From NCBI GenBank assembly GCA_902630065.1, contig CACOTF010000001.1, positions 133,854-197,853 of the forward strand: DNA of 64,000 bases, given 5' to 3'. Source of the stretch: an uncultured Pelagibacteraceae bacterium (GTDB lineage Bacteria; Pseudomonadota; Alphaproteobacteria; Pelagibacterales; Pelagibacteraceae). Positions 9,766 to 26,605 of the stretch are shown here, piece by piece (within the stretch, counting starts at the first letter, position 1; the number at the start of each line of letters is the position of its first letter). A model generated the notes under the pieces. The model was given only the letters and a program-made list of their open reading frames with translations. It ran no database searches and was not told the DNA's origin. Made by a program: the position numbers and the translations under genes.

Positions 9766-11261
9766 CTTTTTTTTCTAAAAGTTGAAAATATTTGCCAACC
9801 AACAATCGTAATCGTTAATAATAAGATAATAAGAGTTATTGGTCTTTCCCATAGAAAATTTGGTGACCCATCACTAATTAATAGTGATCTTCTTAATGTT
9901 TCCTCCATAAGTCCTCCTAAAACAAAAGCTAAAATTAAGGGTGGCATTGGAAAATCATAAAGGCGAAGAAATGTTGCAACTACCGCAATTCCGATCATTA
10001 AAAAAATATCGAAATTATTAAAAGACATTAAATAGATACCTGTAACTGAGAAAAATAATATCAATGGAATTAAAAAGTTTCTAGGAACAGCTAAAATTCT
10101 AGCAATATAAGGTATTAGAGGAAGGTTAAGTATTAGTAGTATTACCATTCCGATATACATAGACATTATAACTGACCAAAAAATTTCAGGATTAGTTTGA
10201 TATAGTCTTGGACCAGGTTGAATACCAAATCCTAACAGCGCTCCTAACATTACAGCAGTTGTACCACTCCCTGGAATTCCTAAAGTTAATAATGGAACAA
10301 ATGATCCAGAACATGCAGCATTATTTGCTGTTTCAGGAGCAGAAAGACCATGCACACTTCCCTTTCCAAATTTCTGTTTCTCTTCGTCGTTTACGTAATT
10401 TCTTTCCATTCCATATGCTAAAAAAGATGCAATAGTTGCACCTGCACCAGGTAAAACTCCAATCAAAAAACCTAATATTGATGACCTAGGTATTGTTTTT
10501 GCCATTTTAATTGTTTCTTCTTTATTCACTTTAATTGAACCTAGTTCAGTTAAAGAAATTTGTTTTGCAGCTCTATTTGGATCTTTTCCTCTAAATATTA
10601 TTGTTAAAGCTTCACTCATTGCAAAAGTTGCCATTACAATAAGAACAAAACTTATACCATCAGTTAAATTCATATTATTAAAAGTAAATCTTGTAATATC
10701 TGATAAAGAGTCTTGACCTACGGTTGCAAGCATTAATCCTAAAATAACCATCATCATTGCTTTTAAAAATTGGCCTTTTGATGAAAAAGCTGAAATTGCT
10801 GTTAATCCTAAAATCATTAGAGCAAAATAATCAGGGGACTGAAAAGATAAACTTACTTTAGATAAACTTGGTGCCGCTATAAGTAAAAATATTGCAGAAA
10901 TAGTTCCACCAGCAAATGAACTATAAGCAGCAATAGCTAGCGCTTTTCCAGCTTTACCCTGTTGTGCCATTGGATAGCCATCAAAGGCAGTTGCAACAGT
11001 TCCTGGTACACCTGGAGCATTTAATAATATTGATGATGTTGAGCCACCAAAGACAGCACCATAATAAACTCCTGCCATTAAAATTAAACCTGTTGATGGA
11101 TCAAAGCCATAAGTTATAGGTATCATCAAAGCAATTGCAGTCATCGGACCTAACCCTGGCAACATTCCAATTATGGTCCCTGCAAAACAACCAACCATTA
11201 CCATAAGTATGTTTGTAAAAGATAAAGCTGTAGATAAACCTATTAGTATTCCCTCAATCAT
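9762..11261 (-). CDS. tctA: Tripartite tricarboxylate transporter permease TctA
   Basis: GMLPGLG, YYGAVFGGS, DGYPMA and PETANNA motifs; likely start MIEGILIG at 11261 overlapping the tctB stop. Confidence 0.93.
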   Translation of the reverse strand: MIEGILIGLSTALSFTNILMVMVGCFAGTIIGMLPGLGPMTAIALMIPITYGFDPSTGLILMAGVYYGAVFGGSTSSILLNAPGVPGTVATAFDGYPMAQQGKAGKALAIAAYSSFAGGTISAIFLLIAAPSLSKVSLSFQSPDYFALMILGLTAISAFSSKGQFLKAMMMVILGLMLATVGQDSLSDITRFTFNNMNLTDGISFVLIVMATFAMSEALTIIFRGKDPNRAAKQISLTELGSIKVNKEETIKMAKTIPRSSILGFLIGVLPGAGATIASFLAYGMERNYVNDEEKQKFGKGSVHGLSAPETANNAACSGSFVPLLTLGIPGSGTTAVMLGALLGFGIQPGPRLYQTNPEIFWSVIMSMYIGMVILLILNLPLIPYIARILAVPRNFLIPLILFFSVTGIYLMSFNNFDIFLMIGIAVVATFLRLYDFPMPPLILAFVLGGLMEETLRRSLLISDGSPNFLWERPITLIILLLTITIVGWQIFSTFRKKS

Positions 11262-11728
11262 CCTATAATTCCTAAATATTGAAGAAGTGGATCTCTTAAA
11301 TAAATATTTAAAACTCCATGTAGCAGATACATAAATATAGCAACAAACGGAAAGGATAATGTAAACATCCAAATCCAACGTCTTTCACCCAGTAAATAAT
11401 AAGAAGATATTAAAAATAATGAAGTTGATAAGAAATAACCTATTTTTAAAATCACAGCGCCATAAATTACTGAAACTATGATTAAGTAAATTATACTTTT
11501 ATAATCTAGAACTTTGTGATCAACAATAATTGTAGTTTTTTCAGGTAAAATTATTTTTAATGAAGATAAAAAGATACCAGCATAACCTAAATAAATTGGA
11601 AACGTTCTAGCATTAAAAGGTGCATTTTCATCAAATGCAAATACTTGAATATTGTAAGCTGAATATAAGTAAAGAACTGATAAAACTAAAAAGAGCAGTG
11701 AGATAAATTTAGTTGGACTAATTCTCAC
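11258..11728 (-). CDS. tctB: Tripartite tricarboxylate transporter TctB
   Basis: Small 4-TM protein between tctC and tctA. Confidence 0.85.
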   Translation of the reverse strand: MRISPTKFISLLFLVLSVLYLYSAYNIQVFAFDENAPFNARTFPIYLGYAGIFLSSLKIILPEKTTIIVDHKVLDYKSIIYLIIVSVIYGAVILKIGYFLSTSLFLISSYYLLGERRWIWMFTLSFPFVAIFMYLLHGVLNIYLRDPLLQYLGIIG

Positions 11729-11755
11729 TGCTCTAATTTAAATAATCTCGAAAGA

Positions 11756-12730
11756 TTATATTACTCCTAATTTTTTCATAAGAGCTGTCATTTCAACAGT
11801 TTGTTTCTCTAAGAAAGCATCAAATTTAGAACCTGGGTTATATATATTTACCCATGCATTTCTTTTTCTAACCGCTTCCCACTCTGGTGTTTTTTGAACA
11901 TCGCCAAGCATTTTAGAGATTTTATTATAGTCACTCATACTCATGCTTTTTGGTGCAAAGAAACCTCTCCAGTTAACAAATTGCACGTCATAACCTTGCT
12001 CTTTTAAGGTTGGTGCATCAGGTGCATCACCTACTCTACTTGGTGCAGTAATACCAATAATTCTAACTTGGTCTCTTGCTCCCATTACTTCTCCCAAACC
12101 AGTTGAAAGAATTTGAGTTTCACCAGATAAAAGTCCAGCTAAAGCTTTTCCACCTGCATCATAAGGAACGTAAATCACATCATTTGGATTTGCTCCAGCA
12201 GCTTGAAATGCTAATGCTCCAATTAAATGGTCCATACTTCCTCTTACAGATCCACCAGCCATTTTAATTGATTTTGGATCTTTTTTGTATTGATCTACAG
12301 CATCTTTAAAATTTTTAATTGGCGAATTTTTAGCAACTACTATTGCACCATAATCTCCAATTACTCCTGCAATCGGTTTAACATCTTTGTAAGATAAAGT
12401 TCCACTACCTTTAACATATCCTTTATGTCTTGTGATTGATCTTAAAACCAAAGGTGTTGATTGAACTAAAACAGTATCTTTTGGGGCGTTATTTATTAAG
12501 TAAGCTAAAGCCTTACCACCTCCACCACCTGACATATTTTCAAATGATGCGCTTTTTAAAAAGCCAGCTTTAGTCAATGCTTCTCCAGTACCTCTAGCAG
12601 TTCCATCCCAACCACCACCAGCACCACCACCGATTAAGAAGTGTAACTTATCAACCGCAAATGAGCTTGTAGATGAAAAAAGAAGAGCTGCAGAAAATAA
12701 AACTGAAATAAAAGTTTTAATTAGTTTCAT
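11756..12730 (-). CDS. tctC: Tripartite tricarboxylate transporter substrate-binding protein TctC
   Basis: GGGAGGGWDGTAR, NMSGGGGG and NWRG motifs; start moved to MKLIK at 12730 (GAGG upstream, signal peptide). Confidence 0.92.
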   Translation of the reverse strand: MKLIKTFISVLFSAALLFSSTSSFAVDKLHFLIGGGAGGGWDGTARGTGEALTKAGFLKSASFENMSGGGGGKALAYLINNAPKDTVLVQSTPLVLRSITRHKGYVKGSGTLSYKDVKPIAGVIGDYGAIVVAKNSPIKNFKDAVDQYKKDPKSIKMAGGSVRGSMDHLIGALAFQAAGANPNDVIYVPYDAGGKALAGLLSGETQILSTGLGEVMGARDQVRIIGITAPSRVGDAPDAPTLKEQGYDVQFVNWRGFFAPKSMSMSDYNKISKMLGDVQKTPEWEAVRKRNAWVNIYNPGSKFDAFLEKQTVEMTALMKKLGVI

Positions 12731-12802
12731 TATTTCCTCTCTTATTATAATTATAATTATACTGATTAAACATATATTAAGATTTAGTGTCAATGAAGAA
12801 TA

Positions 12803-13885
12803 ATGATAAACTTTGTAAGAGATATACCAATAAACAAAAAAGAATTTAAATTATTAATTTCACCGAAATTTTTTCTTGTAATTCTAGTATCGATACCAAG
12901 TGCAATTATCGCTGATTATTTTAATGTACCACTTGCTTGGATGATCGGACCTATGATTATAACTTCAATAGCCGCCTTAGCTGGTCTTAAAATAATTATG
13001 CCTCGTTTAGCTTTAAGCTCAGTTTTAATAATTCTGGGTCTTTATATAGGAAATTATATTGATCAAAATTTATTTAATCAAATGTTAGATTGGATATGGA
13101 CAACTTTGATAATGCTTATTTATATAATAATAAGTATTTATGTAGTTTCAAAGTATCTACAGAAATTTTCAGGATATCAAAAAAAAGCATCTATTTTTTC
13201 TGCAGCACCTGGAGCGTTAGGTCCATTAATAATTTTAGCTGAATATGAAAAATCAGATTTGTCCCAAGTTGCCACATCTCATTTAATTAGATTAATTATT
13301 ATTATTACAGTTTTTCCATTTATAATTGTGAGTTCGTCAAATCAAGAGGCTTTAATTATTAATGATTATAATTATATGGCTCAGGATCATTTCAATTTAG
13401 CTTTATTAATTGTTGGGTCATTAATTTTAATATTTATATTTGATAAGATTAAAGTTCCTGCTGCCTTACTATCGGGGACTTTAGTGGCAAGCGGAATTTT
13501 ACAAATAACAGAAGTTGCTTCTTATAAGTTGCCAGAAACAACCATCAACTTTTGTTTGTTAGTGTTGGGGGCATCCGTTGGGTGCAGATTTGCAAACAAA
13601 ACTATAAAAGAAATTGCAAACAACTCTCTTCATAGTGTAGTTGCTACAGTCATTTTAGTAATACTTGGTTTATTAGCAGCATACTTTGCAAATTTTTTTG
13701 TAGAGAATAGTCTTATGACTTTAATATTAGCTTTTTGTCCTGGAGGTATTTATGAAGTTGCAGTTATTGCTATTGCATTTGATTTAGAGCCAGATTTTGT
13801 GGCCTTTCATCATATCATTAGACTTTTGTTTATTCTATTTACTGTTCCTGTTTTTTTAAAAGTAATTGAAAAGTTTAAGAAATAG
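12803..13885 (+). CDS. AbrB-family duplicated membrane protein
   Basis: PLAWMIGPM, duplicated APGA/CPGG and HLIR/HIIR motifs; divergent from tctC. Confidence 0.85.
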   Translation: MINFVRDIPINKKEFKLLISPKFFLVILVSIPSAIIADYFNVPLAWMIGPMIITSIAALAGLKIIMPRLALSSVLIILGLYIGNYIDQNLFNQMLDWIWTTLIMLIYIIISIYVVSKYLQKFSGYQKKASIFSAAPGALGPLIILAEYEKSDLSQVATSHLIRLIIIITVFPFIIVSSSNQEALIINDYNYMAQDHFNLALLIVGSLILIFIFDKIKVPAALLSGTLVASGILQITEVASYKLPETTINFCLLVLGASVGCRFANKTIKEIANNSLHSVVATVILVILGLLAAYFANFFVENSLMTLILAFCPGGIYEVAVIAIAFDLEPDFVAFHHIIRLLFILFTVPVFLKVIEKFKK

Positions 13886-14816
13886 ACGATTTTAGTTTTT
13901 CAAAAACATTTTCTGCAGATAGTTTGCTTAAATCTGAAACCTGGATAGCTTTAAAATATTCAGTTTCAATACTAACTTTTTCTGCAGTCGTATGAGATCC
14001 AAATAATACTAAACCTTTCTTATTTAAATGAGCAGCCATATGAGCTGGTCCTGTATCATTTGAAACAATAAATGAACTCTCTTTAATAAGCGAAGACAAT
14101 TTAGAAATATTAACTGCTATACCATTGTCTAAAATACTTATAGCATCAAATTCATTTGTTAACTTTATTTCATTTGGTCCTGGTACGATTACAATTTGAA
14201 ATTGATTAGAATATTGAGATTTAATTTTCTTAATTAAATTACTAAAGTAAGGCCATCTTTTGATAGTTAAACCCGGAGATGAAAATGGAAATAAAATAAT
14301 ATATTTTTTTAAGTTATAATTACGCTTTAAATCACTTATATCTTCACAACTCCAAGAAAAATCAGGTTTCAGTACATTTTTAGTAGTTATGCCAGATGAT
14401 TTTAACTGATGTTCAAATCTTCTTAAAACTCCGTCTTTATCAAAGTTTTTTTTACTAGTTCCTTCAGGTAAAGTTGTTTCGGTGGAGGACCAAATATCTG
14501 ATCTCGATTTCGGAAAAAGAATTTTTTTATAAAAATTTGTTCGATTTGAATTTTGAAGATCATATACTTTTGAAAATTTATATTTTTTTAATTTTCTCAT
14601 TAATAAATACAAATAAACTAAATTAAATCTAGAAAGTCTTTTGTCTAAAATTATGTCTTTAAAATTTTGATTTTTTTTAAATAAATCTATGTAAGGCTTA
14701 GTTGTTAATAAGTACAAATTATCTGCTCTATGATTTTCAGATATATCTTGAATTGCCCCACTTGCTTGAGCTATATCTCCTAAAGAGCCATGTTTTATAA
14801 TAAGTATATTAGACAT
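13875..14816 (-). CDS. Glycosyltransferase family 9 (heptosyltransferase-like)
   Basis: KHGSLGD, DLQ, KRWP and SNDTGPAHMAA motifs. Confidence 0.9.
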   Translation of the reverse strand: MSNILIIKHGSLGDIAQASGAIQDISENHRADNLYLLTTKPYIDLFKKNQNFKDIILDKRLSRFNLVYLYLLMRKLKKYKFSKVYDLQNSNRTNFYKKILFPKSRSDIWSSTETTLPEGTSKKNFDKDGVLRRFEHQLKSSGITTKNVLKPDFSWSCEDISDLKRNYNLKKYIILFPFSSPGLTIKRWPYFSNLIKKIKSQYSNQFQIVIVPGPNEIKLTNEFDAISILDNGIAVNISKLSSLIKESSFIVSNDTGPAHMAAHLNKKGLVLFGSHTTAEKVSIETEYFKAIQVSDLSKLSAENVFEKLKSSIS

Positions 14817-14848
14817 ATTTTTAACAACTTAACATAATATAAAATTAT

Positions 14849-15238
14849 ATGAATAAAATTTTAGTTGAAGTGTCTGTTGGAGAATTGTTAGATAAAATTT
14901 CAATTTTAGAAATTAAATCTGAAAAAATTAAAGATCCAGAAAAATTAAATTTTATTAAAGATGAGTATAAAATTTTAAAGAATCGATTAAATACTAGTAT
15001 TAAAAATTATAATGATATTGAAAGTTTATATAATTCATTAAAAGAAATAAATTCTAAGTTATGGGTAATTGAGGATGATAAGAGACTTTGTGAAAAAAAT
15101 TCTAATTTTGGTGAAAAATTTATTAAATTATCAAGAGATGTTCACTTCTTAAATGATGAAAGATCAAAATTAAAATTAGAAATAAATAATAAGACTGGTT
15201 CTAAAATTAAAGAAATAAAAGAATATACAAAGTATTAA
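14849..15238 (+). CDS. Conserved protein (DUF6165-like)
   Basis: VSVGELLDKISILEIK...LWVIED...NDER...KEIKEY. Confidence 0.75.
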   Translation: MNKILVEVSVGELLDKISILEIKSEKIKDPEKLNFIKDEYKILKNRLNTSIKNYNDIESLYNSLKEINSKLWVIEDDKRLCEKNSNFGEKFIKLSRDVHFLNDERSKLKLEINNKTGSKIKEIKEYTKY

Positions 15239-15265
15239 TATTACTTATAAATTTTCTAAATAAAT

Positions 15266-16051
15266 TTAAACTAAACTTGGAATTATTTTTCTTAAATCCA
15301 TTGAAAGCTTAGGGTTAATTTTTGAATAGATTACTCCCTTCCCTAATTTTTTTAGTGCCAATATTTTTCCATCTGGTGAAATAATTACTGTATGGCCAAA
15401 TGTTTCTCTTTTAGGGGTATTTTTACCAGTTTGAGCTGGCGCAAAAATATAACAAAAATTTTCAATAGCTCTTGCTCTTAAAAGGGTTAACCAATGTTTT
15501 TGTCCAGTAAACTTTGTAAAAGCTGAAGGAACTGCTATAAAGCTCAAATTTTTTTTTGATAAACTTCTATAAAGTTCAGGAAATCTTAGATCAAAACAGA
15601 TAGTAAATCCTAATCTACCCCAAGGTAAATTTGCTGTAACTAATTTGTTTCCTGCTTTAAAAGTTTTACTTTCTTTATGTTGTTCTTTATTTGGTATTTT
15701 TACATCAAACATATTGATTTTGTCATAATATTTGACAACTTTTCCATTTGGTCCAATCAATATTGACCTATTTCTAAGTTTATTTTTAACCTTAACGCAA
15801 ATTGATCCGAGTAAAATCCATTTCTTATATTTTTTTGAAACTTCTTTAATTTTCTTCAAAATTGGATCTTTATTCATTTCAAATGAATATTTAAAAAGTG
15901 TTTCTCTACTACTGGACATCAAGGAAGAGGTTTCAGGTGTAATAATTAAATCAGATTTATTTTTTATAGCTTGATTTACATATTTAAGAATATCTTTGTA
16001 ATTATTTTCATAATTTTCTCCACTAGATAATTGTATGCATGCTATTTTCAT
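15266..16051 (-). CDS. Carbon-nitrogen hydrolase (Nit1-like)
   Basis: Glu-Lys-Cys triad motifs TPE, YDK and ICFDLRFPE; RARAIEN. Confidence 0.9.
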   Translation of the reverse strand: MKIACIQLSSGENYENNYKDILKYVNQAIKNKSDLIITPETSSLMSSSRETLFKYSFEMNKDPILKKIKEVSKKYKKWILLGSICVKVKNKLRNRSILIGPNGKVVKYYDKINMFDVKIPNKEQHKESKTFKAGNKLVTANLPWGRLGFTICFDLRFPELYRSLSKKNLSFIAVPSAFTKFTGQKHWLTLLRARAIENFCYIFAPAQTGKNTPKRETFGHTVIISPDGKILALKKLGKGVIYSKINPKLSMDLRKIIPSLV

Positions 16052-16725
16052 GTTTGAAATCCATATTTTTTTTCCAAATATTTAATTACATTATGAATTA
16101 TAAAAGTCATAAACAAGTAAATACCTCCTGCCACAATAAATACTTCTACTGGCTTAAATGTTGTTGAAATTATATATTTAGCAACACCAGTTAAGTCCAT
16201 TAGTGTGACTGTGCTTGCTAATGATGTGCCTTTAAGCATTAAAATAATTTCATTGCCATAAGCTGGCAAAGATTGTTTTATTGCAATAGGAATTTGTATT
16301 TTTGTAAAAATAATTTTAGAAGGTATGCCTAAGCTTCTTCCAGCTTCTAAATATCCAGGTTTTATAGTTTGAAAAGCTGATCTCAATATTTCTGATGTAT
16401 AAGCACCTGTATTTAATGAAAATGCAATTATCGCGCACCAATATGGTTCTTTTAAAACTACCCACAAAACTGTTGTTCTTAAGTATTCAATTTGACCTAA
16501 TCCAAAATATATTATGAAAATTTGAACCAATAGAGGTGTTCCTCTGAATATATAAGAATAGCCGTAAGCAAATTTATTAATTAATTTATGACTATTCATT
16601 CTCAAAATTGCAAAACCTAATCCAATAAAAAGACCGACAATAAGAGATACAGACAATAGTTTAAGAGTAATCAAAGTTGCGTTTAGCAACTTAGGAAAAC
16701 TACTAATCATTAATTCAATATCCAT
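16048..16725 (-). CDS. Polar amino-acid ABC permease (HisM/OccM-like)
   Basis: RGTPLLVQ and LKGTSLAS motifs. Confidence 0.9.
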   Translation of the reverse strand: MDIELMISSFPKLLNATLITLKLLSVSLIVGLFIGLGFAILRMNSHKLINKFAYGYSYIFRGTPLLVQIFIIYFGLGQIEYLRTTVLWVVLKEPYWCAIIAFSLNTGAYTSEILRSAFQTIKPGYLEAGRSLGIPSKIIFTKIQIPIAIKQSLPAYGNEIILMLKGTSLASTVTLMDLTGVAKYIISTTFKPVEVFIVAGGIYLFMTFIIHNVIKYLEKKYGFQT

Positions 16726-17417
16726 TAATAACCTTTGCTATATTTTGTCTCTAATTTGTTTAATAATTGCATACTTAAAAATGTAAGAATTAAGTACAAA
16801 ACTGCTGCAAATGAGTAAAAAAATAATGGATCTCTTGTTGATCCAGCTGCAATATAAGATTGTCTCATTATTTCAACTAGACCAGTTACAGATATAAGAG
16901 AAGTATCTTTCAAAGTAATTTGCCAAACGTTACTTAAATTTGGAATTGCTAATCTAAGCATTTGAGGCAAAATAATTTTAAAGAAGTAAATATATTTATT
17001 AAATCCTAAAACTTTTGCAGCTTCAAACTGACCTCTGTCAATTGATTGTAATGCACCTCTAAATACTTCGGTTGAGTATGCTCCCGATATTATCCCTATT
17101 GAAAATGAACCTGTTAAAAAAGCATTAATTTCGATGTAATCATTATAACCAAATATAGAAGCAACAAACATAATTGCTCCGCTACCCCCAAAGAAAAATA
17201 AATAAATTACTAGAAGCTCTGGTACACCTCTAATAACAGTGGTGTATGCATTACCAATAGAATTAAGAAATTTATTATTAGATAATTTTAATGGAGTAAA
17301 TAAAGCAGCGAATATAAAGCCAATTATCATTGCGGTTATAGAGACCGCAATTGTCATTAAGGTTGCAAAGAATAACTCGTCTCCCCAACCTTTATCACCA
17401 AAATATAGAAGTTCCAT
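16725..17417 (-). CDS. Polar amino-acid ABC permease (HisQ/OccQ-like)
   Basis: RGVPELL, GQFEAA and LKDTSL motifs. Confidence 0.9.
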   Translation of the reverse strand: MELLYFGDKGWGDELFFATLMTIAVSITAMIIGFIFAALFTPLKLSNNKFLNSIGNAYTTVIRGVPELLVIYLFFFGGSGAIMFVASIFGYNDYIEINAFLTGSFSIGIISGAYSTEVFRGALQSIDRGQFEAAKVLGFNKYIYFFKIILPQMLRLAIPNLSNVWQITLKDTSLISVTGLVEIMRQSYIAAGSTRDPLFFYSFAAVLYLILTFLSMQLLNKLETKYSKGY

Positions 17418-17420
17418 AAT

Positions 17421-17446
17421 ATAGGTGGCTAATTATAGCCACCCAT
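17421..17446 (-). terminator. Intercistronic stem-loop after the binding-protein gene
   Basis: Minus strand ATGGGTGGCTA-TAAT-TAGCCACCTAT; 11 bp stem with one G-U pair. Confidence 0.6.
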
Positions 17447-17456
17447 AACTAATTTA

Positions 17457-18284
17457 TTACATAGAAGCGTCAAAACCAAAATGTTTTATAGCAAGCTTAC
17501 TAATAATGCCATCGTCTCTAGCTTTATCAATTGCTGCATTAAAATCATTTAAAAGTTTAGAGTCACCTTTTCTAATACCTACACCAACTCCATTTCCAAA
17601 GTCTCCACCTGCAAATGTTGGTCCAGTCAATACAACTCCTTTACCAGATTTTTCTGCATAATCTGTAAAAGCAACTGCTGCAGCTAGTGCTGCATCTATT
17701 CTACCAGCAGATAAGTCTAAGTTTACTTCATCTTGAGTCTTGTAAGTTCTAATTTTTACATTACCCATTAAACCAGACTCTAAGAAATTCTGATGAATTG
17801 TTGCTGTTTGTACACCTATAGTTTTACCTTTAAAAGCTTTAGTCAAAACATCTAGTGTTGCTTGCTCATCAGCACTTATATCTGTTAAATTTATAGCTGA
17901 CATTGTTTTAAGACCTTCATTTTTTGATCCCTTCATAACAGCTAGTGATGCAACTTCATCAGCATAACCTTGAGAAAAGTTTATTGTTTTCATTCTCTCA
18001 CCAGTTATTGACATTCCAGCCATGATAGCATCAAATTTTCTTGAAACTAAAGCTGGTATCATTCCATCCCAATCTTGCTCTACAATAGTGCAGTCATGTT
18101 TCATTATTTTGCATAATTCATTTGCTAATTCGACTTCAAAGCCAATCAAATTTCCAGCTGCGTCTTTAGAATTCCAAGGTGGATATGCACCTTCGGTTCC
18201 TATTTTAATTTGATCTGCAATTGAAGAAATTGTTAAGAATAATGATATTAAAATACCAAGTCCTAATACTTTTAATTTTTTCAT
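17457..18284 (-). CDS. Basic amino-acid/opine ABC substrate-binding protein
   Basis: IGTEGAYPPWN and QDWDGMIPAL motifs; start MKKLK at 18284 with GGAGG upstream. Confidence 0.9.
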   Translation of the reverse strand: MKKLKVLGLGILISLFLTISSIADQIKIGTEGAYPPWNSKDAAGNLIGFEVELANELCKIMKHDCTIVEQDWDGMIPALVSRKFDAIMAGMSITGERMKTINFSQGYADEVASLAVMKGSKNEGLKTMSAINLTDISADEQATLDVLTKAFKGKTIGVQTATIHQNFLESGLMGNVKIRTYKTQDEVNLDLSAGRIDAALAAAVAFTDYAEKSGKGVVLTGPTFAGGDFGNGVGVGIRKGDSKLLNDFNAAIDKARDDGIISKLAIKHFGFDASM

Positions 18285-18342: not shown

Positions 18343-19383
18343 TTAATGATTTATTGACGAGGAAAAATTCCAAGAACAATCAAAACTTGGTATGTAAACT
18401 CTTGAAAGTTTTGTATTTCCAAAATTTTTGTTAAAAACATTTAACCAATTTTCAACTTGTTTTGGTTTTTTGTCTTGGCTTCCTACTTGAGCAGTAATTA
18501 CACCTTTGGGTTTTAATATTCTTTCTAAAGATGACATATTTTTCGCTGCCAAATCTATACAAAATTGATCATCATTAAGATCTACAAAGATTTGATCATA
18601 AGTATTGTCTTTGATAGATTTAATACTTTCAAAAGCATCTCCCCAAACACATTTAACTGAATTTTTTTCTGTGGCCTTCTCACCAATTTTGCTTAAATGT
18701 TTATCACAAACATCAACAACCTCGTGATCTAATTCATACCAATCAATAAATCCAAAATTTTGTGAAATGCATTCTCTTGCAACACCTCCATCACCTCCAC
18801 CAATAATTGCGGCTTTTTCTTTATTTGAGTTTAAATTAAGACCCGAATTTACAAAAGTTGAGCTATATAAATGTTCATCGCTTTCAGCTACTTGTATTTC
18901 ATTATCAATAAATAAAGCTTTTCCAAACTGTTCTAAATCAAGTATTTCAATATATTGACCAACTTTAGATTTAAAATTTTCCAAAACTTTATTAACAACA
19001 TATGATTTTTTTAAACCTGGGGAACTATAATTGTCATGATAAAGATCAATTGTATCTCTATTAAATTCTTTAATAATGATATTTGTATGTTCCATCTCAT
19101 ATTTTATTATATCCAGAGAAACTTTTGGAGATACTTTTCCACAAGTAAAAAAATCAAAGCTTACAATTTCTTTTTCTGGGAAAGTGTGAAAACTAATGTG
19201 ACTTTCAGCGAGTAAGGCAACTAATGTAAATCCTTGAGGTTCAAATTTATATTTAGAAATTTTTAAAACTGTTACTTTTGCTGCTTTAGCAATTTTATAA
19301 ACCAACTTTTCATAAAATTCAGGTGTGTATTCTTTTTTAGTTCCAACAATATCCAGTGTTATATGTTCGCCAACTTTTTCCAT
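18343..19383 (-). CDS. speD-speE: S-adenosylmethionine decarboxylase / spermidine synthase fusion
   Basis: N-terminal pyruvoyl cleavage motif LAESHISFHTFPE and TCG; C-terminal IGGGDGG aminopropyltransferase motif. Confidence 0.92.
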   Translation of the reverse strand: MEKVGEHITLDIVGTKKEYTPEFYEKLVYKIAKAAKVTVLKISKYKFEPQGFTLVALLAESHISFHTFPEKEIVSFDFFTCGKVSPKVSLDIIKYEMEHTNIIIKEFNRDTIDLYHDNYSSPGLKKSYVVNKVLENFKSKVGQYIEILDLEQFGKALFIDNEIQVAESDEHLYSSTFVNSGLNLNSNKEKAAIIGGGDGGVARECISQNFGFIDWYELDHEVVDVCDKHLSKIGEKATEKNSVKCVWGDAFESIKSIKDNTYDQIFVDLNDDQFCIDLAAKNMSSLERILKPKGVITAQVGSQDKKPKQVENWLNVFNKNFGNTKLSRVYIPSFDCSWNFSSSINH

Positions 19384-19472
19384 AAGAATCTAATAAATAT
19401 CTTTTTTAACTAACGAAATTTTTTACTTCTTTCAAACAAAAAACTATTATAATAATTTATTGAGGATAAACA

Positions 19473-21506
19473 TTGAAAAACAATTGGTCAGATACCGTAG
19501 CTAAAAAGTATATAAAAAAGTATAAGAAATTAGGTCATTCTGAAGATATGGCTTTAAGAGTTTATACAACTAGGCTTTTAGGAAGAAATCCAGAATTAGT
19601 ATTGCATGGTGGTGGAAATACTTCAGTTAAGACTAGAATCAAAGATATAGATGGCAAATATTACGATGTTCTTTGCGTAAAAGGCAGTGGATGGGATATG
19701 GCTGAAATTGAACCAGCAGGCCTACCAGCTGTTAAATTAGATCCGTTGCTTACTATGAAAAAAAAGAAAATACTTTCAGACGACGACATGGTTGCATTTC
19801 AAAAAAAAAATTTAATAGATACAAAATCACCTAATCCATCAGTTGAAACTTTTTTACATGCATTTTTGCCATATAAATTTGTTGATCATACTCATTCAGA
19901 TGCAATTATGAAAATCACTAATAGACCAAATGGAGAAATGCTATCAAAAAAAATATTTGGTAAAAAGACTGCAATAGTACCTTATGTAATGCCTGGATTT
20001 AAATTAGCACAAAAAATAAATGAAATTTATTCTAAAAACCCAAATATAAATTGTTTAATTTTATTAAACCATGGAATTTTCACATTTGCAAATAATGCAA
20101 AAGATGCATACAGTTTAATGATAAAGTATATATCCGATGCTGAAAAAACTTTAACCAAACTAAAAAAGAAAAAAATAAAACAGATCAAGAAAACTAAATT
20201 TAATTTTTCAACAGCAGACATAGCTCCTATATTGAGAGGTCTTTTATCTGAAAAAAATGATAACAAATTTATCTTAAATTTTAAAAAAAATAATAAGTTA
20301 GATTATTTTATTAATGGTAAAGATATAAATAGATATTCAAATGAAGGAACAGCTACTCCTGATCATGTGATAAGAGTTAAACCATTTCCTTTAATAATAT
20401 CACCAAAACCAAAATGTAGTTTGGATGAATTTAAAAATTTAGCTGAAAAAAAATTTAAAGAATACCGGCAAAAATATAAAAAATATTTTGATGTAAACAA
20501 GAAAAAAACAAAAGAAAAAAAGGTGATGCTTGATACATCTCCTAGAGTGATACTTGTTCAGAATTTTGGTTTATTTACCGTAGGTGACAGTTTAAAAGCT
20601 GCAAAAATTGCAGGAGATTTAACTCAAACTAATGCCAATGTAATTTCAAGTGTTGAAGAGACATCCAGATATAAATTCTTATCAAAAAAAGACTTATTTG
20701 ATGTCGAGTATTGGTCCTTAGAACAATCAAAATTAAACAAAGCAAAAAAGGAATTACAAGGCAACGTTGTTGTTATCACCGGTAGCACTGGTGAAATTGG
20801 TAAAGCAACTTATAAATTATTTAAAAAATATGGAGCTGAAGTTGTTTTACTTGATATTAATAAAAGTAAGATAAATGATTTACAGACTAAAATAAGCGAT
20901 CTTTGTATTCACTGTGATGTAACCAACAAACAAAGTGTAAAAAAAGCATTTAGTAAAATTTTGGAAATTTATGGAGGTGTAGACATTTTAATATCAAATG
21001 CAGGCACTGCTATTGGTGGATCAATTGCAGAAGTTAATGATGAAATACTTCGAAAAAGTTTCGAAGATAATTTTTTCTCACATCAAAATTGTGCTTCAGA
21101 GGCTGTAAAAATTATGAAAAAACAAAATATAAATGGATGTTTGTTATTTAATATATCTAAGCAATCAGTTAATCCTGGTAAAAATTTTGGACCATATGGA
21201 TTGCCTAAGTCTGCGCTTCTAAATTTGTGTAAACAATATGCAGTTGATTATGGACACCTTGGTATTAGATCAAATGGTGTTAATGCTGATAGAATAAGAA
21301 GTGGTCTATTAAATGATAAAATGATTAAACAAAGAGCAAAAGCTAGAGAAGTAACCACGGATCAATATATGAGTGGTAATCTACTGTTAAGCGAAGTTAA
21401 AGCAGATGATGTGGCTAAAGCTTTTTATCACCTTGCTATATCAAAAAAATCAACAGGTGCTGTTTTAACTGTTGATGGTGGAAATATTGCAGCATCTTTG
21501 CGATAG
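19473..21506 (+). CDS. Bifunctional class II aldolase / short-chain dehydrogenase
   Basis: GGGNTSVK, KGSG, PSVETFLH, DHTH and NHG (aldolase); TGSTGEIG, NAG, YGLPK and VDGG (SDR); TTG start. Confidence 0.9.
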   Translation: MKNNWSDTVAKKYIKKYKKLGHSEDMALRVYTTRLLGRNPELVLHGGGNTSVKTRIKDIDGKYYDVLCVKGSGWDMAEIEPAGLPAVKLDPLLTMKKKKILSDDDMVAFQKKNLIDTKSPNPSVETFLHAFLPYKFVDHTHSDAIMKITNRPNGEMLSKKIFGKKTAIVPYVMPGFKLAQKINEIYSKNPNINCLILLNHGIFTFANNAKDAYSLMIKYISDAEKTLTKLKKKKIKQIKKTKFNFSTADIAPILRGLLSEKNDNKFILNFKKNNKLDYFINGKDINRYSNEGTATPDHVIRVKPFPLIISPKPKCSLDEFKNLAEKKFKEYRQKYKKYFDVNKKKTKEKKVMLDTSPRVILVQNFGLFTVGDSLKAAKIAGDLTQTNANVISSVEETSRYKFLSKKDLFDVEYWSLEQSKLNKAKKELQGNVVVITGSTGEIGKATYKLFKKYGAEVVLLDINKSKINDLQTKISDLCIHCDVTNKQSVKKAFSKILEIYGGVDILISNAGTAIGGSIAEVNDEILRKSFEDNFFSHQNCASEAVKIMKKQNINGCLLFNISKQSVNPGKNFGPYGLPKSALLNLCKQYAVDYGHLGIRSNGVNADRIRSGLLNDKMIKQRAKAREVTTDQYMSGNLLLSEVKADDVAKAFYHLAISKKSTGAVLTVDGGNIAASLR

Positions 21507-21523
21507 TTTTAACAATTTTATTC

Positions 21524-21552
21524 TTGCAATTTATAATTTTTGTCTTCAAAAT
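21524..21552 (+). promoter_or_regulatory. Possible sigma70 promoter for trpB2
   Basis: TTGCAA-17 nt-CAAAAT; weak evidence in AT-rich DNA. Confidence 0.25.
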
Positions 21553-21566
21553 TAAGAATATAAAAA

Positions 21567-22928
21567 ATGACTGATACAATTAAATATTTTCTTGAAGAAA
21601 GCAAAATGCCTAAAACTTGGTATAATATTGCTGCTGATTTACCAAAACCAATGGAGCCACCTCTTCATCCGGGTACTTTAAAACCCATTGGTCCTGATGA
21701 TTTAGCTCCGTTGTTTCCTATGGCTTTAATTGGTCAAGAAGTTTCTCAAGATAGAGAGATAGAAATCCCTGAACCAGTAAGACAAATTTACAAACAGTGG
21801 AGACCATCTCCTTTATATAGAGCAAGAAAATTAGAAAAGCATTTAGATACTCCTGCAAAAATTTATTATAAATATGAAGGCGTTAGTCCTTCAGGTAGTC
21901 ATAAACCTAATACTGCTGTTGCTCAAGCATTTTACAATAAAGAGGAAGGCACAAAAAAAATTACAACTGAAACAGGTGCTGGACAGTGGGGAACTTCATT
22001 AGCATTTGCATGTAAATTATTTGGAATTGAATTAGACGTATACATGGTAAAAGTAAGTTTTGAACAAAAACCTTATAGAAAACTTGTTATGCAAACATAT
22101 GGGGCAAGATGTGTTGCTAGTCCATCTAATGAAACAGATAGTGGTAAAGCAATATTAGCTAAAGATCCAGATAACACTGGTAGTTTAGGTATAGCAATAT
22201 CTGAAGCAGTTGAGATGGCAGCAAAAAATCCAGATACAAAATATGCATTAGGCAGTGTATTAAATCATGTCTTAATGCACCAAACTATTGTTGGTAATGA
22301 AGCATTGTTACAAATGGAAATGGCAGATGACTATCCTGACATTTTAGTTGGTTGTACAGGTGGAGGAAGTAATTTTTCAGGTTTAGCAAATCCATTTTTA
22401 GGTAAAAATTTTAGAGAAGGTAAAAAAACAAGAGTGATAGCTTGTGAACCTAAGTCATGCCCTACATTAACAGAGGGTAAATATGTATATGATTTTGGTG
22501 ATACAGGAAAATTAACACCATTAGTAAAAATGCATACACTTGGGTCTCAATTTATACCACCAGCAACACACTCTGGAGGCTTGAGATATCATGGTATGGC
22601 TCCTTTAGTGAGTCATTTAAAAGAAATAAATGCCCTTGAAGCTAAAGCTTATGGTCAAAAAGAATGTTTCGAAGCTGGTGTAAATTTTGCAAGAACTGAA
22701 GGAATTGTTCCAGCACCAGAAGCTACTCATGCTGTTAAGGGAGCTATAGATGCTGCTTTAGAATGTAAGAAAAATGGAGAGTCTAAAACAATTTTATTCA
22801 ACTTATGTGGTCATGGTCATTTTGATATGAAAGCATACGGAGATTACTTCGAGGGAAATTTAGCAGAAGATAAGTTTGATAAAGGTAGTATGGATAAAGC
22901 TCTTGAGGACTTACCGAAAATTGCATAG
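21567..22928 (+). CDS. trpB2: TrpB2-type PLP enzyme (stand-alone tryptophan synthase beta)
   Basis: 453 aa; PKTWYNI, GSHKPNTA (PLP Lys), TETGAGQWG, GGGSNF and GGLRYHG; no trpA nearby. Confidence 0.9.
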   Translation: MTDTIKYFLEESKMPKTWYNIAADLPKPMEPPLHPGTLKPIGPDDLAPLFPMALIGQEVSQDREIEIPEPVRQIYKQWRPSPLYRARKLEKHLDTPAKIYYKYEGVSPSGSHKPNTAVAQAFYNKEEGTKKITTETGAGQWGTSLAFACKLFGIELDVYMVKVSFEQKPYRKLVMQTYGARCVASPSNETDSGKAILAKDPDNTGSLGIAISEAVEMAAKNPDTKYALGSVLNHVLMHQTIVGNEALLQMEMADDYPDILVGCTGGGSNFSGLANPFLGKNFREGKKTRVIACEPKSCPTLTEGKYVYDFGDTGKLTPLVKMHTLGSQFIPPATHSGGLRYHGMAPLVSHLKEINALEAKAYGQKECFEAGVNFARTEGIVPAPEATHAVKGAIDAALECKKNGESKTILFNLCGHGHFDMKAYGDYFEGNLAEDKFDKGSMDKALEDLPKIA

Positions 22929-22933
22929 TTATT

Positions 22934-24034
22934 TTGAGTCTCATAACACCATTTAGAGGAATAAGACCACAGGTTAAGTTTGCTAAAAAAATCTCATCAC
23001 CAAATATAAGTTACTTAAATAATTTTAAATTTAGCAAAGACAAAAACTTTCTTAATATTTTAAATAATCCAAATATATCTTATGCAAACAAAATATTTAA
23101 AGAATTAGAAAAAAATAAAATCATATTTCAAGACAAAAAAGATAACTATTATCTTTATAAAATATCATTTAAAAAAAAATACTTGTTAGGAATAGTAGGT
23201 AAAATAAATTTAAAAAACTACGACGACAAAAAAATTTTAGGACATGAAGAGACTTTTCCTGAAAGAATAAAAAAAAGAAAACAACAGTTAATAAAGTTTA
23301 ATACACAAATTAGTCCAATATATACTACATATAAGTTAAATAAGTTGTCTTTATCAACTTTAAAAAAACTTTTTAAATTTAAACCTAATTATGAATTTAT
23401 TTCAAATGATAAATGTAAACACGAATTATGGGTAATTGAAGATAAAGATAAACAGACTAAAGTACAAAAATATTTAAATAAAATTAAAAAATTATACATT
23501 TGTGATGGACATCATAGACTTCAAGCGATGTTAAAAAGTAAAGAAAAAATTTCACCTATGATTATAGCTTTTCCAGATAAGCAAGTTGAAATATTGGATT
23601 ACAATAGAGTCATACAATCAAATTTAAATTTTAAACAAATACATAATATAATTTCAAAATACTTTTCTATTAAAATAAAGAAAACTAAAAAACTAAAAAA
23701 AAATGAAATTGGAATGTATATAAATAATACATGGTATATTATTAAATACCTAAAAAAATCCAAAGATTTAGATATTACAATTCTTAAAAAATTTATTATT
23801 GATAAAATTTTAAAAAATAAAAAAAATATAAAGTATGTATCTGGTATTAAAGGAGATGTTATATTAAAAAAACTTGTTAATTCAGGTAAATTTAATGTTG
23901 CATTTAAATTAAATCCTACAAATCTTTTACAAGTAATGTCTTTTGCTGAGAAGAAAAAGTATATGCCTCAAAAATCCACTTGGTTTCATCCAAAACCGCT
24001 TGATGGTTTAATATTGTCAAAAGTTATTTCTTAA
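22934..24034 (+). CDS. DUF1015 family protein (ParB/Srx-like fold)
   Basis: PFRGIRP, HEET, YICDGHHR and MPQKSTWFHPK motifs. Confidence 0.88.
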   Translation: MSLITPFRGIRPQVKFAKKISSPNISYLNNFKFSKDKNFLNILNNPNISYANKIFKELEKNKIIFQDKKDNYYLYKISFKKKYLLGIVGKINLKNYDDKKILGHEETFPERIKKRKQQLIKFNTQISPIYTTYKLNKLSLSTLKKLFKFKPNYEFISNDKCKHELWVIEDKDKQTKVQKYLNKIKKLYICDGHHRLQAMLKSKEKISPMIIAFPDKQVEILDYNRVIQSNLNFKQIHNIISKYFSIKIKKTKKLKKNEIGMYINNTWYIIKYLKKSKDLDITILKKFIIDKILKNKKNIKYVSGIKGDVILKKLVNSGKFNVAFKLNPTNLLQVMSFAEKKKYMPQKSTWFHPKPLDGLILSKVIS

Positions 24035-25103
24035 ATAAGTTTTCTAATCCTTCAGTTGAAGCATTACAAACTCCTTTTTCTGTTATTAATGCAGTAACAT
24101 ATTTAGCAGGTGTTACATCAAAGGCTAAATTTAATGATTTGCTTTTTTCGGGATATATTAAAACTTTATCCACTTTATTATCTTTGTTAATTCCATCCAC
24201 ATGAGAAAGTTCTTTTGGATCTCTTTCTTCTATAGGAATATCTTTTGCGTTTTTTAAATTCCAATCTATCGTTGAACTTGGTAAAGCTACGTAAAAAGGT
24301 ACCTTATTATCATGAGCTGCAAGAGCTTTTAAATAGGTTCCAATTTTATTGCACACATCTCCGTTAGATAATGTTCTATCTGTTCCAACAATACACATAT
24401 CAACCTGTCCTCTTTGCATTAATATTCCACCTGTATTATCTGCTATAATTGTATTTGGAATTTCTTCTTCATTAAGTTCATATGATGTAAGGTTTGCTCC
24501 TTGATTTCTTGGTCTAGTTTCATCTACCCAAACATGTATAGGTATTCCTTTTTTATGTGCATGATAAATAGGAGAAGTTGCTGTTCCCCAATCTATTGTA
24601 GCTAACCAACCTGCATTACAATGTGTGAGAATATTGACGGTATCTTTCTTTTTATTATATATATCTTCAATAATATTTAATCCATTTTTACCAATACTTT
24701 CACAAAATCCCTCATCCTCTTTACAAATTTCTTTAGCTTCATTGAGTGCAACATTAAATAAATCTCCAGGTTCAACAAATGACAATTTGTTATTCATTCT
24801 ATGAACTGCCCACTGAAGATTTATTGCTGTTGGTCTAGATGCAACTAATTTCTCTGAACTTTTTTTTATAAAATCTAAACTGTTATTTTCTTTTATAGCT
24901 AAAACCAATCCAAATGCAGCTGTACCTCCGATTAATGGAGCACCTCTCACTTCCATTGTTTTTATAGCATTTATCGCGTCTTTAACTGAATTTAATTCTT
25001 TTATTATAAACTTATGTGGAAGCTTTGTTTGATCTATTATTTTTACAACCTGTTTTTCTTCATCAAACCAAATTGTTTTATATTTAACACCATTAATTTT
25101 CAT
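24024..25103 (-). CDS. mtnA: Methylthioribose-1-phosphate isomerase
   Basis: DQTKLP, VRGAPLIG, SRPTAINL, THCNAGWLAT, ETRP and NKIGTY motifs. Confidence 0.95.
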   Translation of the reverse strand: MKINGVKYKTIWFDEEKQVVKIIDQTKLPHKFIIKELNSVKDAINAIKTMEVRGAPLIGGTAAFGLVLAIKENNSLDFIKKSSEKLVASRPTAINLQWAVHRMNNKLSFVEPGDLFNVALNEAKEICKEDEGFCESIGKNGLNIIEDIYNKKKDTVNILTHCNAGWLATIDWGTATSPIYHAHKKGIPIHVWVDETRPRNQGANLTSYELNEEEIPNTIIADNTGGILMQRGQVDMCIVGTDRTLSNGDVCNKIGTYLKALAAHDNKVPFYVALPSSTIDWNLKNAKDIPIEERDPKELSHVDGINKDNKVDKVLIYPEKSKSLNLAFDVTPAKYVTALITEKGVCNASTEGLENLFKK

Positions 25104-25972
25104 TAAGTAAGAACTCTTCCTGCAATTGTTTTTAATTTATCTTTAGTTTTTTGAGTTCTTTTTTCTGGAGCAGTAATTATTGCTACATCTAAGCAATTAT
25201 TAGTTGGATCCTTAGGATCAATGTGATTTTCAAAGTTCTCTATCAAATTTTTAATCATGTTTTTTGCTTTCGCTGCATTATCTAAGAGTACTTTTATAAC
25301 TTGTTGAACATCCACATTTTCATGATCTGGATGCCAGCAATCATAATCTGTTACCATTGAAACTGAAGCATATCTAATTTCTGCTTCTCTTGCTAGTTTA
25401 GCTTCTGGCATATTTGTCATTCCAATAACATCTGCTTTCCATGATCTATATAGGTTTGACTCTGCTAATGTAGAAAATTGTGGACCTTCCATTACAACAT
25501 AAGTTCCACCTCTTTGATAAGGTATGCTTTCTTTTTTTATAGCATCTTCGCAAGCATTCATCAGCCCATTTGAGGTTGGGTGTGCCATTGATACATGTGC
25601 AACAATCTCATCATCAAAAAAAGTTTTGTATCTTGCAAAAGTTCTATCAATGAATTGATCAACGATAACAAATTTACCTGGAGGCAAATCTTCCTTTAAA
25701 GATCCAACTGCTGAAACAGAAACTATATCTGTGATACCTAGTTGTTTAAGAGCATCTATATTTGCTCTAAAATTTATTTTTGATGGAGAAATAAAATGAC
25801 CTTTTCCATGTCTTGGTAAAAAAAAAATTTCTTTATTATTATATTCAGCTTTTAATATTAAATCTGAGGGTTTTCCCCAAGGAGTGTTTAAATCTAAAGT
25901 TTCTCTATCTTTAAACTCTTCAACATCATATAGGCCACTTCCACCAATAATTGCTAATTTATTATTTGCCAT
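25103..25972 (-). CDS. mtnP: Methylthioadenosine phosphorylase
   Basis: IIGGSGLY, RHG, EGPQFSTLAES, GMT and TDYDCWH motifs. Confidence 0.95.
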   Translation of the reverse strand: MANNKLAIIGGSGLYDVEEFKDRETLDLNTPWGKPSDLILKAEYNNKEIFFLPRHGKGHFISPSKINFRANIDALKQLGITDIVSVSAVGSLKEDLPPGKFVIVDQFIDRTFARYKTFFDDEIVAHVSMAHPTSNGLMNACEDAIKKESIPYQRGGTYVVMEGPQFSTLAESNLYRSWKADVIGMTNMPEAKLAREAEIRYASVSMVTDYDCWHPDHENVDVQQVIKVLLDNAAKAKNMIKNLIENFENHIDPKDPTNNCLDVAIITAPEKRTQKTKDKLKTIAGRVLT

Positions 25973-26000
25973 AATACGTTTTAGATTATAATTAAGTTTT

Positions 26001-26528
26001 ATGGATTTAAAAGAACATATTAGATCAATTCAAGACTATCCTAAAAAGGGAATTCTATTTAGAGACATCACAACTCTCATAAAAAATGAAAAAGCATTTA
26101 AAGAATGTATTGATCAAATAGTAGAGAGATCAAAAAAATTTAATTTTGATAAAATAGCAGCTGTAGAATCTAGGGGTTTTGTATTTGCTTCTGCTATTTC
26201 ATACATCTTAGATAAGCCATTTATAATGTTAAGAAAAAAAAATAAACTACCCGCTGAGGTACATTCTGTTGATTTTGAGCTAGAATATGGAACGGCTACA
26301 ATTGAAGTTCATAAAGACTCATTTAATGAAAGCGATAATGTATTAATTATTGATGACTTAATTGCAACTGGAGGTACTGCTGAAGCTGCAGCTAAACTAA
26401 TAGAAATATCAAAAAGCAAGGTTGCAGGATTTATTTTTGTAATTAATTTGTTTGATCTTGGTGGTACTGATAATCTTTTAAAAAAAGGATATAAAGTTGA
26501 AAATCTTTTAGATTTTCCTGGTCATTGA
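26001..26528 (+). CDS. apt: Adenine phosphoribosyltransferase
   Basis: GILFRDIT, ESRGF, LEYG and IDDLIATGGT motifs. Confidence 0.96.
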   Translation: MDLKEHIRSIQDYPKKGILFRDITTLIKNEKAFKECIDQIVERSKKFNFDKIAAVESRGFVFASAISYILDKPFIMLRKKNKLPAEVHSVDFELEYGTATIEVHKDSFNESDNVLIIDDLIATGGTAEAAAKLIEISKSKVAGFIFVINLFDLGGTDNLLKKGYKVENLLDFPGH

Positions 26529-26605
26529 TGGTAGCGGGAAGTGGGATCGAACCACTGACCTCGGGCTTATGAGTCCCGCGCTCTAACCAACTGAGCTACC
26601 CCGCC
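26529..26605 (-). tRNA. tRNA with CAT anticodon (probably elongator Met)
   Basis: GGCGGGGTAGCTCAGTTGGTTAGAGCGCGGGACTCATAAGCCCGAGGTCAGTGGTTCGATCCCACTTCCCGCTACCA; 77 nt, encoded CCA; lacks initiator features; Ile2 not fully excluded. Confidence 0.93.

Follow-up and report, generated by a model that had tools for sequence, protein, structure and literature searches.

We analysed a 64,000-nucleotide window of contig CACOTF010000001.1 from an uncultured member of Candidatus Pelagibacter (Pelagibacteraceae, SAR11; assembly of 963 kb in 22 contigs, 67.7% complete), in which positions 18343-26528 carry seven genes, including those for the production and salvage of 5'-methylthioadenosine (MTA) and one for a 677-aa fusion of a class II aldolase with a short-chain dehydrogenase/reductase (SDR). 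Judging from the comparison with related genomes, this fusion has replaced in situ, without being its orthologue, the FucA-like, stand-alone Ald2-type aldolase of the dihydroxyacetone phosphate (DHAP) shunt. The cluster would accordingly encode a Pelagibacter form of the DHAP shunt, acting on MTA and probably also on 5'-deoxyadenosine. We hold the full route, including an oxidation with NAD+, with moderate confidence, and the assignment of the aldolase step to the fusion, taken alone, with distinctly greater confidence.

MTA and 5'-deoxyadenosine are unavoidable, inhibitory by-products of S-adenosylmethionine chemistry, and the DHAP shunt is the main oxygen-independent route by which bacteria dispose of them. 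In Rhodospirillum rubrum, Rhodopseudomonas palustris, extraintestinal Escherichia coli and Bacillus thuringiensis, the shunt consists of MtnP (or MtnN plus MtnK), MtnA and the aldolase Ald2/DrdA. The window resembles these systems in having the same MtnP and MtnA with an adjoining class II aldolase, and in being likewise without canonical mtnB and mtnD. It differs from them in that its aldolase is not an Ald2/DrdA/FucA orthologue and is fused to an SDR predicted to serve the aldehyde step.

The gene identities were established from the open reading frames (ORFs) and their Pfam and NCBIfam profile matches. The speD-speE fusion gene (speDE; 18343-19383, minus strand), encoding S-adenosylmethionine decarboxylase joined to the aminopropyltransferase and thus the MTA-producing step, showed the Pfam domains AdoMet_dc (7-109) and Spermine_synth (170-340); SpeE of SAR11 has been described as a multidomain fusion (PMC8437039). 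The aldolase/SDR fusion gene (19473-21506, plus strand) matched Pfam Aldolase_II and adh_short as well as NCBIfam NF006192. Both enzymes required at the head of the shunt scored above their cut-offs: mtnA (24024-25103, minus strand), for the isomerase of methylthioribose-1-phosphate and 5-deoxyribose-1-phosphate, reached 413 bits on TIGR00512 (cut-off 279), and mtnP (25103-25972, minus strand), for MTA phosphorylase, reached 441.8 bits on NF006492 (cut-off 437) and 310 bits on TIGR01694 (cut-off 275), the last base of mtnP being the first base of the mtnA ORF. The apt gene (26001-26528, plus strand), for the adenine phosphoribosyltransferase that salvages the adenine released by MtnP, scored 201.5 bits on TIGR01090 (cut-off 185.85). 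The clustering of these five genes is far beyond chance, and the same gene order was found again in every related locus examined. An earlier reading of this DNA from the sequence alone (the sequence-only reading) had named precisely these five as a cluster, which is borne out here, and had passed over a TrpB-like gene and a DUF1015 gene lying within the same span.

The position of the fusion gene is best understood from its relatives. Most Pelagibacter genomes carry, directly beside mtnA, a class II aldolase of 210-232 aa (hereafter ALD). Models of L-fuculose-phosphate aldolase gave it approximately 200-214 bits, the MtnB model (cut-off 137) only 66-76 bits, and its PDB matches were E. coli FucA and the 5-deoxyribulose-1-phosphate aldolase DrdA of B. 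thuringiensis (6btd). By these similarities, the layout mtnP-mtnA-ALD of most sister genomes corresponds to the textbook DHAP-shunt arrangement mtnP-mtnA-ald2. Throughout the 20 loci mapped, the order apt, mtnP-mtnA, ALD or fusion, and speDE was conserved, followed by an amino-acid ATP-binding cassette transporter, and speDE adjoined the aldolase slot in every mapped Pelagibacter locus. The two kinds of slot occupant differ in orientation, ALD being co-directional with the mtnP-mtnA operon and the fusion inverted.

MtnA was present in 62 of the 77 genomes sampled from the genus, 12 of these having the fusion and the other 50 ALD; in 48 of the 50, no more than 5 kb parted ALD from mtnA. ALD and the fusion never occurred together at the locus in an MtnA-positive genome, and all 12 fusion-bearing genomes of the genus in the order-wide sample possess MtnA. 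The additional aldolase-like matches seen in some fusion genomes belonged to a different paralogue, 25-30% identical to ALD and found in other contexts. The replacement could be followed at the DNA level by comparison with an ALD-type relative (L038), whose flanks share 92-93% DNA identity with the window. Homology was lost at position 19378, a few bases into speDE, whose start codon occupies 19381-19383, and set in again at 24045, close to where mtnA terminates; the two breakpoints enclose 4,666 bp in the window versus 654 bp, containing ALD, in the relative. The difference between the two genomes is a clean cassette swap. Many SAR11 genomes hold such a further class II aldolase/adducin-family paralogue, of 230-250 aa and with 25-30% identity to the mtnA-linked aldolase, in unrelated contexts; none was detected in the assembled part of the present genome, where the fusion was the only class II aldolase domain found.

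The linkage with mtn genes extends well beyond Pelagibacter. In a second SAR11 family, the fusion (51-52% identical to that of the window) belongs to a co-directional apt-mtnP-mtnA-fusion operon (L032 and L033), and the three fusion-bearing genomes were the only ones with MtnA among 60 of that family. When one genome per species was scanned, 80 loci were obtained, of which 69 lay outside Pelagibacteraceae (43-54% identity to the fusion), and the mtn genes near the latter were located by tblastn. In 38 of these 69 loci, mtnA and/or mtnP stood within 8 kb of the fusion gene, the usual form being mtnP-(apt)-mtnA-fusion, all co-directional and spaced by some tens of bases, while four or five of the unlinked loci were cut off upstream. 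The loci included members of Rhodospirillales, Rhizomicrobium, Ferrovibrio, Defluviicoccus, Stellaceae, Pseudolabrys, Mesorhizobium and Chelativorans as well as a Gemmatimonadales metagenome-assembled genome, and in a protein tree the linked loci were scattered throughout the clade to which the SAR11 sequences belong. The synteny of the fusion with mtnA and mtnP, proposed earlier as a check, is therefore kept from SAR11 to many other Alphaproteobacteria. The context of distant representatives (34-37% identity) held neither rha nor mtn genes. As side observations, seven alphaproteobacterial loci had mtnP directly before the fusion gene with no mtnA between them, and a dienelactone hydrolase gene followed the mtnP-(apt)-mtnA-fusion operon in 12 loci.

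An even, class-wide sample of 301 alphaproteobacterial genomes, four of which had partial matches and were set aside, further separated two types of fusion. Scores on TIGR02632 (RhaD_aldol-ADH) were bimodal, with 949-1143 bits in nine genomes and 378-521 bits, over the full length, in 51 genomes; the fusion of the window, at 445.5 bits (cut-off 567.75), is of the second type. Of the 51 genomes with the low-scoring fusion, 47 possess MtnA, as compared with 85 of the 245 without it, and mtnA lay within 3.5 kb of the fusion gene in 23 of the 47 co-occurring genomes. For the high-scoring type, which represents the true rhamnose enzyme RhaEW, the rhamnose mutarotase gene rhaM was located approximately 6 kb away in four of the five genomes tested. 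Three genomes (G260, G347 and G164) carry both types; the mtn-type copy of G164 is separated from mtnA by 436 bp.

The domain structure of the fusion comprises a class II aldolase (approximately residues 1-230), a middle part (approximately 230-425) and a classical NAD-type SDR (approximately 426-677). It scored 898.4 bits over residues 1-677 on NF006192, the model of bifunctional aldolase/short-chain dehydrogenases (PRK08324.1-6; cut-off 639), which places it in that family, and only 428 bits on the rhamnulose-specific model NF006189 (cut-off 634). In an AlphaFold (AF2) model with a mean pLDDT (predicted local distance difference test score) of 91.7, Foldseek related the N-terminus to a class II aldolase domain from Thermoplasma (3m4r, uncharacterised), which was also the only PDB sequence match of the fusion (phmmer), and the C-terminus to classical NAD-dependent SDRs. 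The predicted structure thus serves as a confirmation of the domain assignment and of nothing further. Comparison of the aldolase domain with the stand-alone SAR11 ALD by BLASTP aligned 47 residues only (E = 4e-4), and the domain is not an orthologue of the FucA-like Ald2/DrdA.

An alignment of 46 mtn-linked fusions with eight true RhaEW sequences (54 in total) revealed that the catalytic apparatus is intact and common to both clades. The phosphate-binding motifs GGGNxS (46-51) and KGSG (70-73) and the zinc ligands H139, H141 and H200 are shared, and for the SDR features TGxxxGxG (436-443), NAG (509-511), S562, Y575, K579 and D461 conservation is 97% or higher across the 54 sequences. The fusion accordingly possesses an intact zinc site, the Ser-Tyr-Lys triad and the complete signature of classical SDRs, including the acidic residue after strand beta-2. 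An Asp at the end of this strand confers a preference for NAD(H) rather than NADP, and D461 thus indicates NAD as the likely cofactor of the SDR domain. The two clades nevertheless share only about 29% identity and are separated by 65 positions, each conserved within its clade. Among them are E125 (Asp in RhaEW), a neighbour of the conserved PSVE motif, as well as the greater part of the loop 564-578 that links the catalytic Ser of the SDR to its Tyr-Lys pair; this loop would be the expected place for an altered aldehyde specificity.

Considering these features together, the following route is proposed. MtnP would release adenine from the MTA made by SpeD-SpeE, giving the 5-substituted ribose-1-phosphate, while Apt would recycle the adenine, and MtnA would isomerise the ribose-1-phosphate to the corresponding ribulose-1-phosphate. 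The N-terminal, zinc-dependent aldolase domain would then cleave the latter to DHAP and 2-(methylthio)acetaldehyde or, in the 5'-deoxyadenosine branch, to DHAP and acetaldehyde, and the C-terminal NAD-type SDR domain would convert the reactive aldehyde at once. The idea that the fusion acts as a DHAP-shunt-type aldolase on the MtnA product, with the SDR handling the aldehyde, was already part of the sequence-only reading and gains support from the comparative evidence.

For the SDR, the likeliest reaction would be an NAD+-dependent oxidation yielding 2-(methylthio)acetate or acetate, by analogy with RhaEW/YuxG (TIGR02632), the bifunctional L-rhamnulose-1-phosphate aldolase/L-lactaldehyde dehydrogenase of Bacillus subtilis and Chloroflexus aurantiacus. 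RhaEW is an aldolase joined to an NAD+-dependent aldehyde dehydrogenase, is inactive with NADH, and forms neither DHAP nor lactate without NAD+ (PMC3870299). Since the fusion shares with RhaEW the three-part architecture and the zinc, phosphate and SDR residues, an aldolase reaction followed by NAD+-dependent aldehyde oxidation is predicted, and such an oxidation would drive the reversible aldolase reaction towards cleavage. The fusion differs from RhaEW in forming a separate clade that scores below the family cut-off and is linked to mtn rather than rha genes, and its predicted substrate has the opposite configuration at C4.

Several points weigh against this proposal. The direction of the SDR reaction is carried over by analogy from RhaEW, the only characterised relatives, and these are distant in sequence. 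L-Rhamnulose-1-phosphate has the 3R,4S configuration, and methylthio- and 5-deoxy-D-ribulose-1-phosphate have the 3R,4R (D-erythro), FucA-type configuration; a different C4 preference must therefore be assumed for the fusion. The loss of the methylthio group as an acid looks wasteful because SAR11 depends on exogenous reduced sulfur, and near the operons of other Alphaproteobacteria we found no enzyme downstream of the methylthio acid, nor any other dedicated enzyme, but only housekeeping genes and the dienelactone hydrolase gene. In Pelagibacter itself, the inversion of the fusion gene relative to mtnP-mtnA makes it a separate transcription unit. In the class-wide sample, about half of the co-occurring genomes lacked adjacency of the fusion gene and mtnA, and four fusion genomes (two of them incomplete assemblies) were without MtnA. 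Furthermore, many of the linked loci are flanked by the cytochrome bc1 genes petABC upstream and by pth, rplY and ychF downstream, and this shared neighbourhood points to an old, vertically kept arrangement, so that these loci do not count as independent events.

Of the alternatives, the one that survives best retains the aldolase step and reverses the second half-reaction, with the SDR using NAD(P)H to turn the aldehyde into the alcohol, 2-(methylthio)ethanol or ethanol, a pattern known from the shunt of R. rubrum and E. coli. In the described shunt, the aldehyde is indeed converted to 2-methylthioethanol or ethanol by an unidentified or general alcohol dehydrogenase (PMC13474568; PMC10986504), and most SDRs, including the nearest solved folds of the present SDR domain, are alcohol or ketone oxidoreductases. 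The reductive variant nevertheless appears rather unlikely to us, since the only characterised members of this architecture work in the oxidative direction with NAD+ and are inactive with NADH (PMC3870299), since the conserved Asp461 argues for NAD and not NADP, and since SAR11 is an aerobe. In R. rubrum, methylthioethanol owes its use to a methylthio-alkane reductase.

It was also considered that the fusion may act on D-ribulose-1-phosphate derived from adenosine or other nucleosides, giving DHAP and glycolaldehyde, the latter going on to glycolate, in which case the module would mainly serve carbon salvage. The replaced ALD scored 166-180 bits on NF053831, the model of haloarchaeal ribulose-1-phosphate aldolase (below its cut-off of 300), and DHAP-shunt enzymes are promiscuous and serve carbon acquisition in E. 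coli (PMC10986504). However, MtnP and MtnA pass the equivalog cut-offs of MTA enzymes, and the module is fixed beside the MTA-producing speDE in Pelagibacter, which makes this explanation improbable.

A third alternative assigns to the N-terminal domain the function of an MtnB-like dehydratase, with the SDR reducing the resulting diketone in a new branch of methionine salvage. Canonical methionine salvage has its first two steps, MtnP and MtnA, as well as the fold of MtnB in common with the route in the window, and the class II aldolase fold and its zinc site are common to MtnB. Fusions involving this fold also exist in methionine salvage: Arabidopsis DEP1 (MtnB plus a haloacid dehalogenase-type phosphatase) and Tetrahymena MtnBD likewise join a domain acting on methylthioribulose-1-phosphate to the enzyme of the following step. 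These are dehydratase-based and lead to 2-keto-4-methylthiobutyrate, whereas for the window fusion an aldolase domain with an SDR partner is predicted, on a route that would not directly regenerate methionine. In the present genome, no protein, the fusion included, matched the MtnB model at E <= 0.001, a profile search for acireductone dioxygenase (ARD, MtnD) gave no match, and the best MtnC score was only 21.7 bits (cut-off 128). Because this assembly is incomplete, the absences were re-tested in relatives including complete genomes. Neither MtnB nor ARD scored above its cut-off in any of 151 genomes of the order, nor did MtnC in five complete fusion-bearing genomes; the canonical set of MtnB, MtnC and MtnD was thus not found in the genomes searched, with MtnW and MtnX lying outside this search. 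Considering also that no follow-up enzyme of the MtnC, MtnD or MtnE type was found, that the replaced slot protein is a FucA-like aldolase and that the RhaEW relatives are aldolases, we regard the dehydratase function as very improbable.

These searches also bear on two statements of the sequence-only reading. The lack of mtnB, mtnC and mtnD, noticed there within the window, holds for the present genome and for the relatives searched, MtnC being represented by the sub-cut-off match only. Placing the fusion where mtnB/C/D would be is, in contrast, not tenable: the corresponding slot of sister genomes holds the FucA-like, Ald2-type aldolase. Moreover, since neither MtnB nor MtnD passed its cut-off in the order sample, canonical methionine salvage was not found there, and the fusion is therefore no specific stand-in for mtnBCD.

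The remaining explanation, an ordinary RhaEW/YuxG for L-rhamnose or another deoxyhexose that lies near mtn genes by chance, draws on the same domain architecture and on the name "rhamnose utilization protein RhaD" given to close homologues, yet is scarcely credible and, from the sequence comparisons, largely refuted, given that the fusion falls below both rhamnulose-specific cut-offs, that it does not belong to a rhamnose locus (rhaA/rhaI, rhaB/K, rhaM), that true alphaproteobacterial RhaEW proteins are clearly distinct, rhaM-associated and in three genomes present alongside it, and that the absence of rhamnose genes noticed in the window extends to RhaA (L-rhamnose isomerase) and rhaM in the present genome and to RhaA in five complete fusion-bearing relatives.

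Both the DHAP shunt and RhaEW were already known, while the pathway form that unites such a fusion with mtn genes is probably new, widespread and wrongly annotated as a rhamnose gene. According to a 2026 review, it is not known which enzyme of the DHAP shunt acts on 2-methylthioacetaldehyde (PMC13474568), and our literature searches returned no aldolase-dehydrogenase fusion in an MTA or DHAP shunt and no DHAP shunt in SAR11, the slash in the usual protein name being liable to hide matches. If the proposed route is correct, the fused aldolase-dehydrogenase fills the gap at the aldehyde step for a large bacterial group, and the widespread annotation as "rhamnose utilisation RhaD" would be corrected. 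The question is weightier in SAR11 because these bacteria cannot reduce sulfate, and its answer would show if the methylthio group of MTA is retained or lost by them. The exchange of ALD and fusion that has occurred naturally in otherwise near-identical genomes offers a ready comparison for physiology and metabolomics.

More tentatively still, we suggest that about one sixth of the sampled alphaproteobacteria, together with the fusion-bearing SAR11, may convert the polyamine-derived methylthio-sugar to DHAP and 2-(methylthio)acetate by an oxidation-driven cleavage, a possibility that we consider somewhat doubtful. It would imply an unrecognised activity, namely that of a RhaEW paralogue with a switched C4 stereopreference and a new aldehyde specificity, and an unrecognised organosulfur product released by the most abundant heterotrophs of the ocean. 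The ALD/fusion polymorphism would, in that case, distinguish two alternative ways in which near-identical populations handle salvaged sulfur.

Turning to the remaining features of the locus, speDE and the fusion gene are divergent and separated by an intergenic region of 89 bp (19384-19472), with a promoter-like sequence TTTACT-17-TATTAT at 19422-19450 on the plus strand and a GAGGA motif 8 nt upstream of the TTG start of the fusion gene at 19473. The best promoter-like site of the region (11 of 12 positions matching) is situated at 21509-21537, ahead of the gene for a TrpB-like, pyridoxal phosphate-dependent enzyme of the TrpB2 type (21567-22928, plus strand; NF009057, 730 bits). This gene is followed by one for a DUF1015/SerBK-like protein (22934-24034, plus strand; Pfam and NCBIfam matches), a family whose members have been proposed to be serine kinases, SerBK (bioRxiv 10.1101/2024.10.14.618325).

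The two genes form an optional island of 2,522 bp (21509-24030, plus strand), cleanly inserted when the window is compared with L019, a relative that has the fusion but not the pair. Six of the 77 sampled members of the genus possessed the pair, which invariably separated mtnA from the aldolase slot; the slot was occupied by ALD in L121-L124 and by the fusion in L023 and the window. On these grounds, namely its rarity, its occurrence with either aldolase type, its own promoter-like site and its clean insertion, the pair was rejected as a member of the pathway. TrpB2 was 92-99% identical among genomes whose flanking genes were only about 78-80% identical, an excess that suggests recent exchange, and the DUF1015 partners ranged from 35 to 65% identity.

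We read the junction of mtnA and the aldolase gene as an insertion hot spot, with TrpB2-DUF1015 as its optional cargo. At the same junction, several relatives carry a 9-kb island of approximately nine ORFs (2604-11577 in L135/G148; also in L047 and in L050, at 10038-17952), and others hold different ORFs. The loci L047 and L050 had appeared to be without mtnA and mtnP; this is probably an artefact of the flank length, since the same 9-kb island parts ALD from mtnA in L135. The mtnP/mtnA junction is likewise an insertion hot spot, several relatives having a 310-aa ORF without an NCBIfam match between the two genes.

No riboswitch was detected in the window with Rfam, the sole match being a tRNA-Met(CAT) at the edge of the cluster (26529-26605, minus strand; identified by ARAGORN, and by RF00005 at 62.6 bits). 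This tRNA gene begins one base past the stop codon of apt, on the opposite strand, and the gene content beyond it varies among the relatives.

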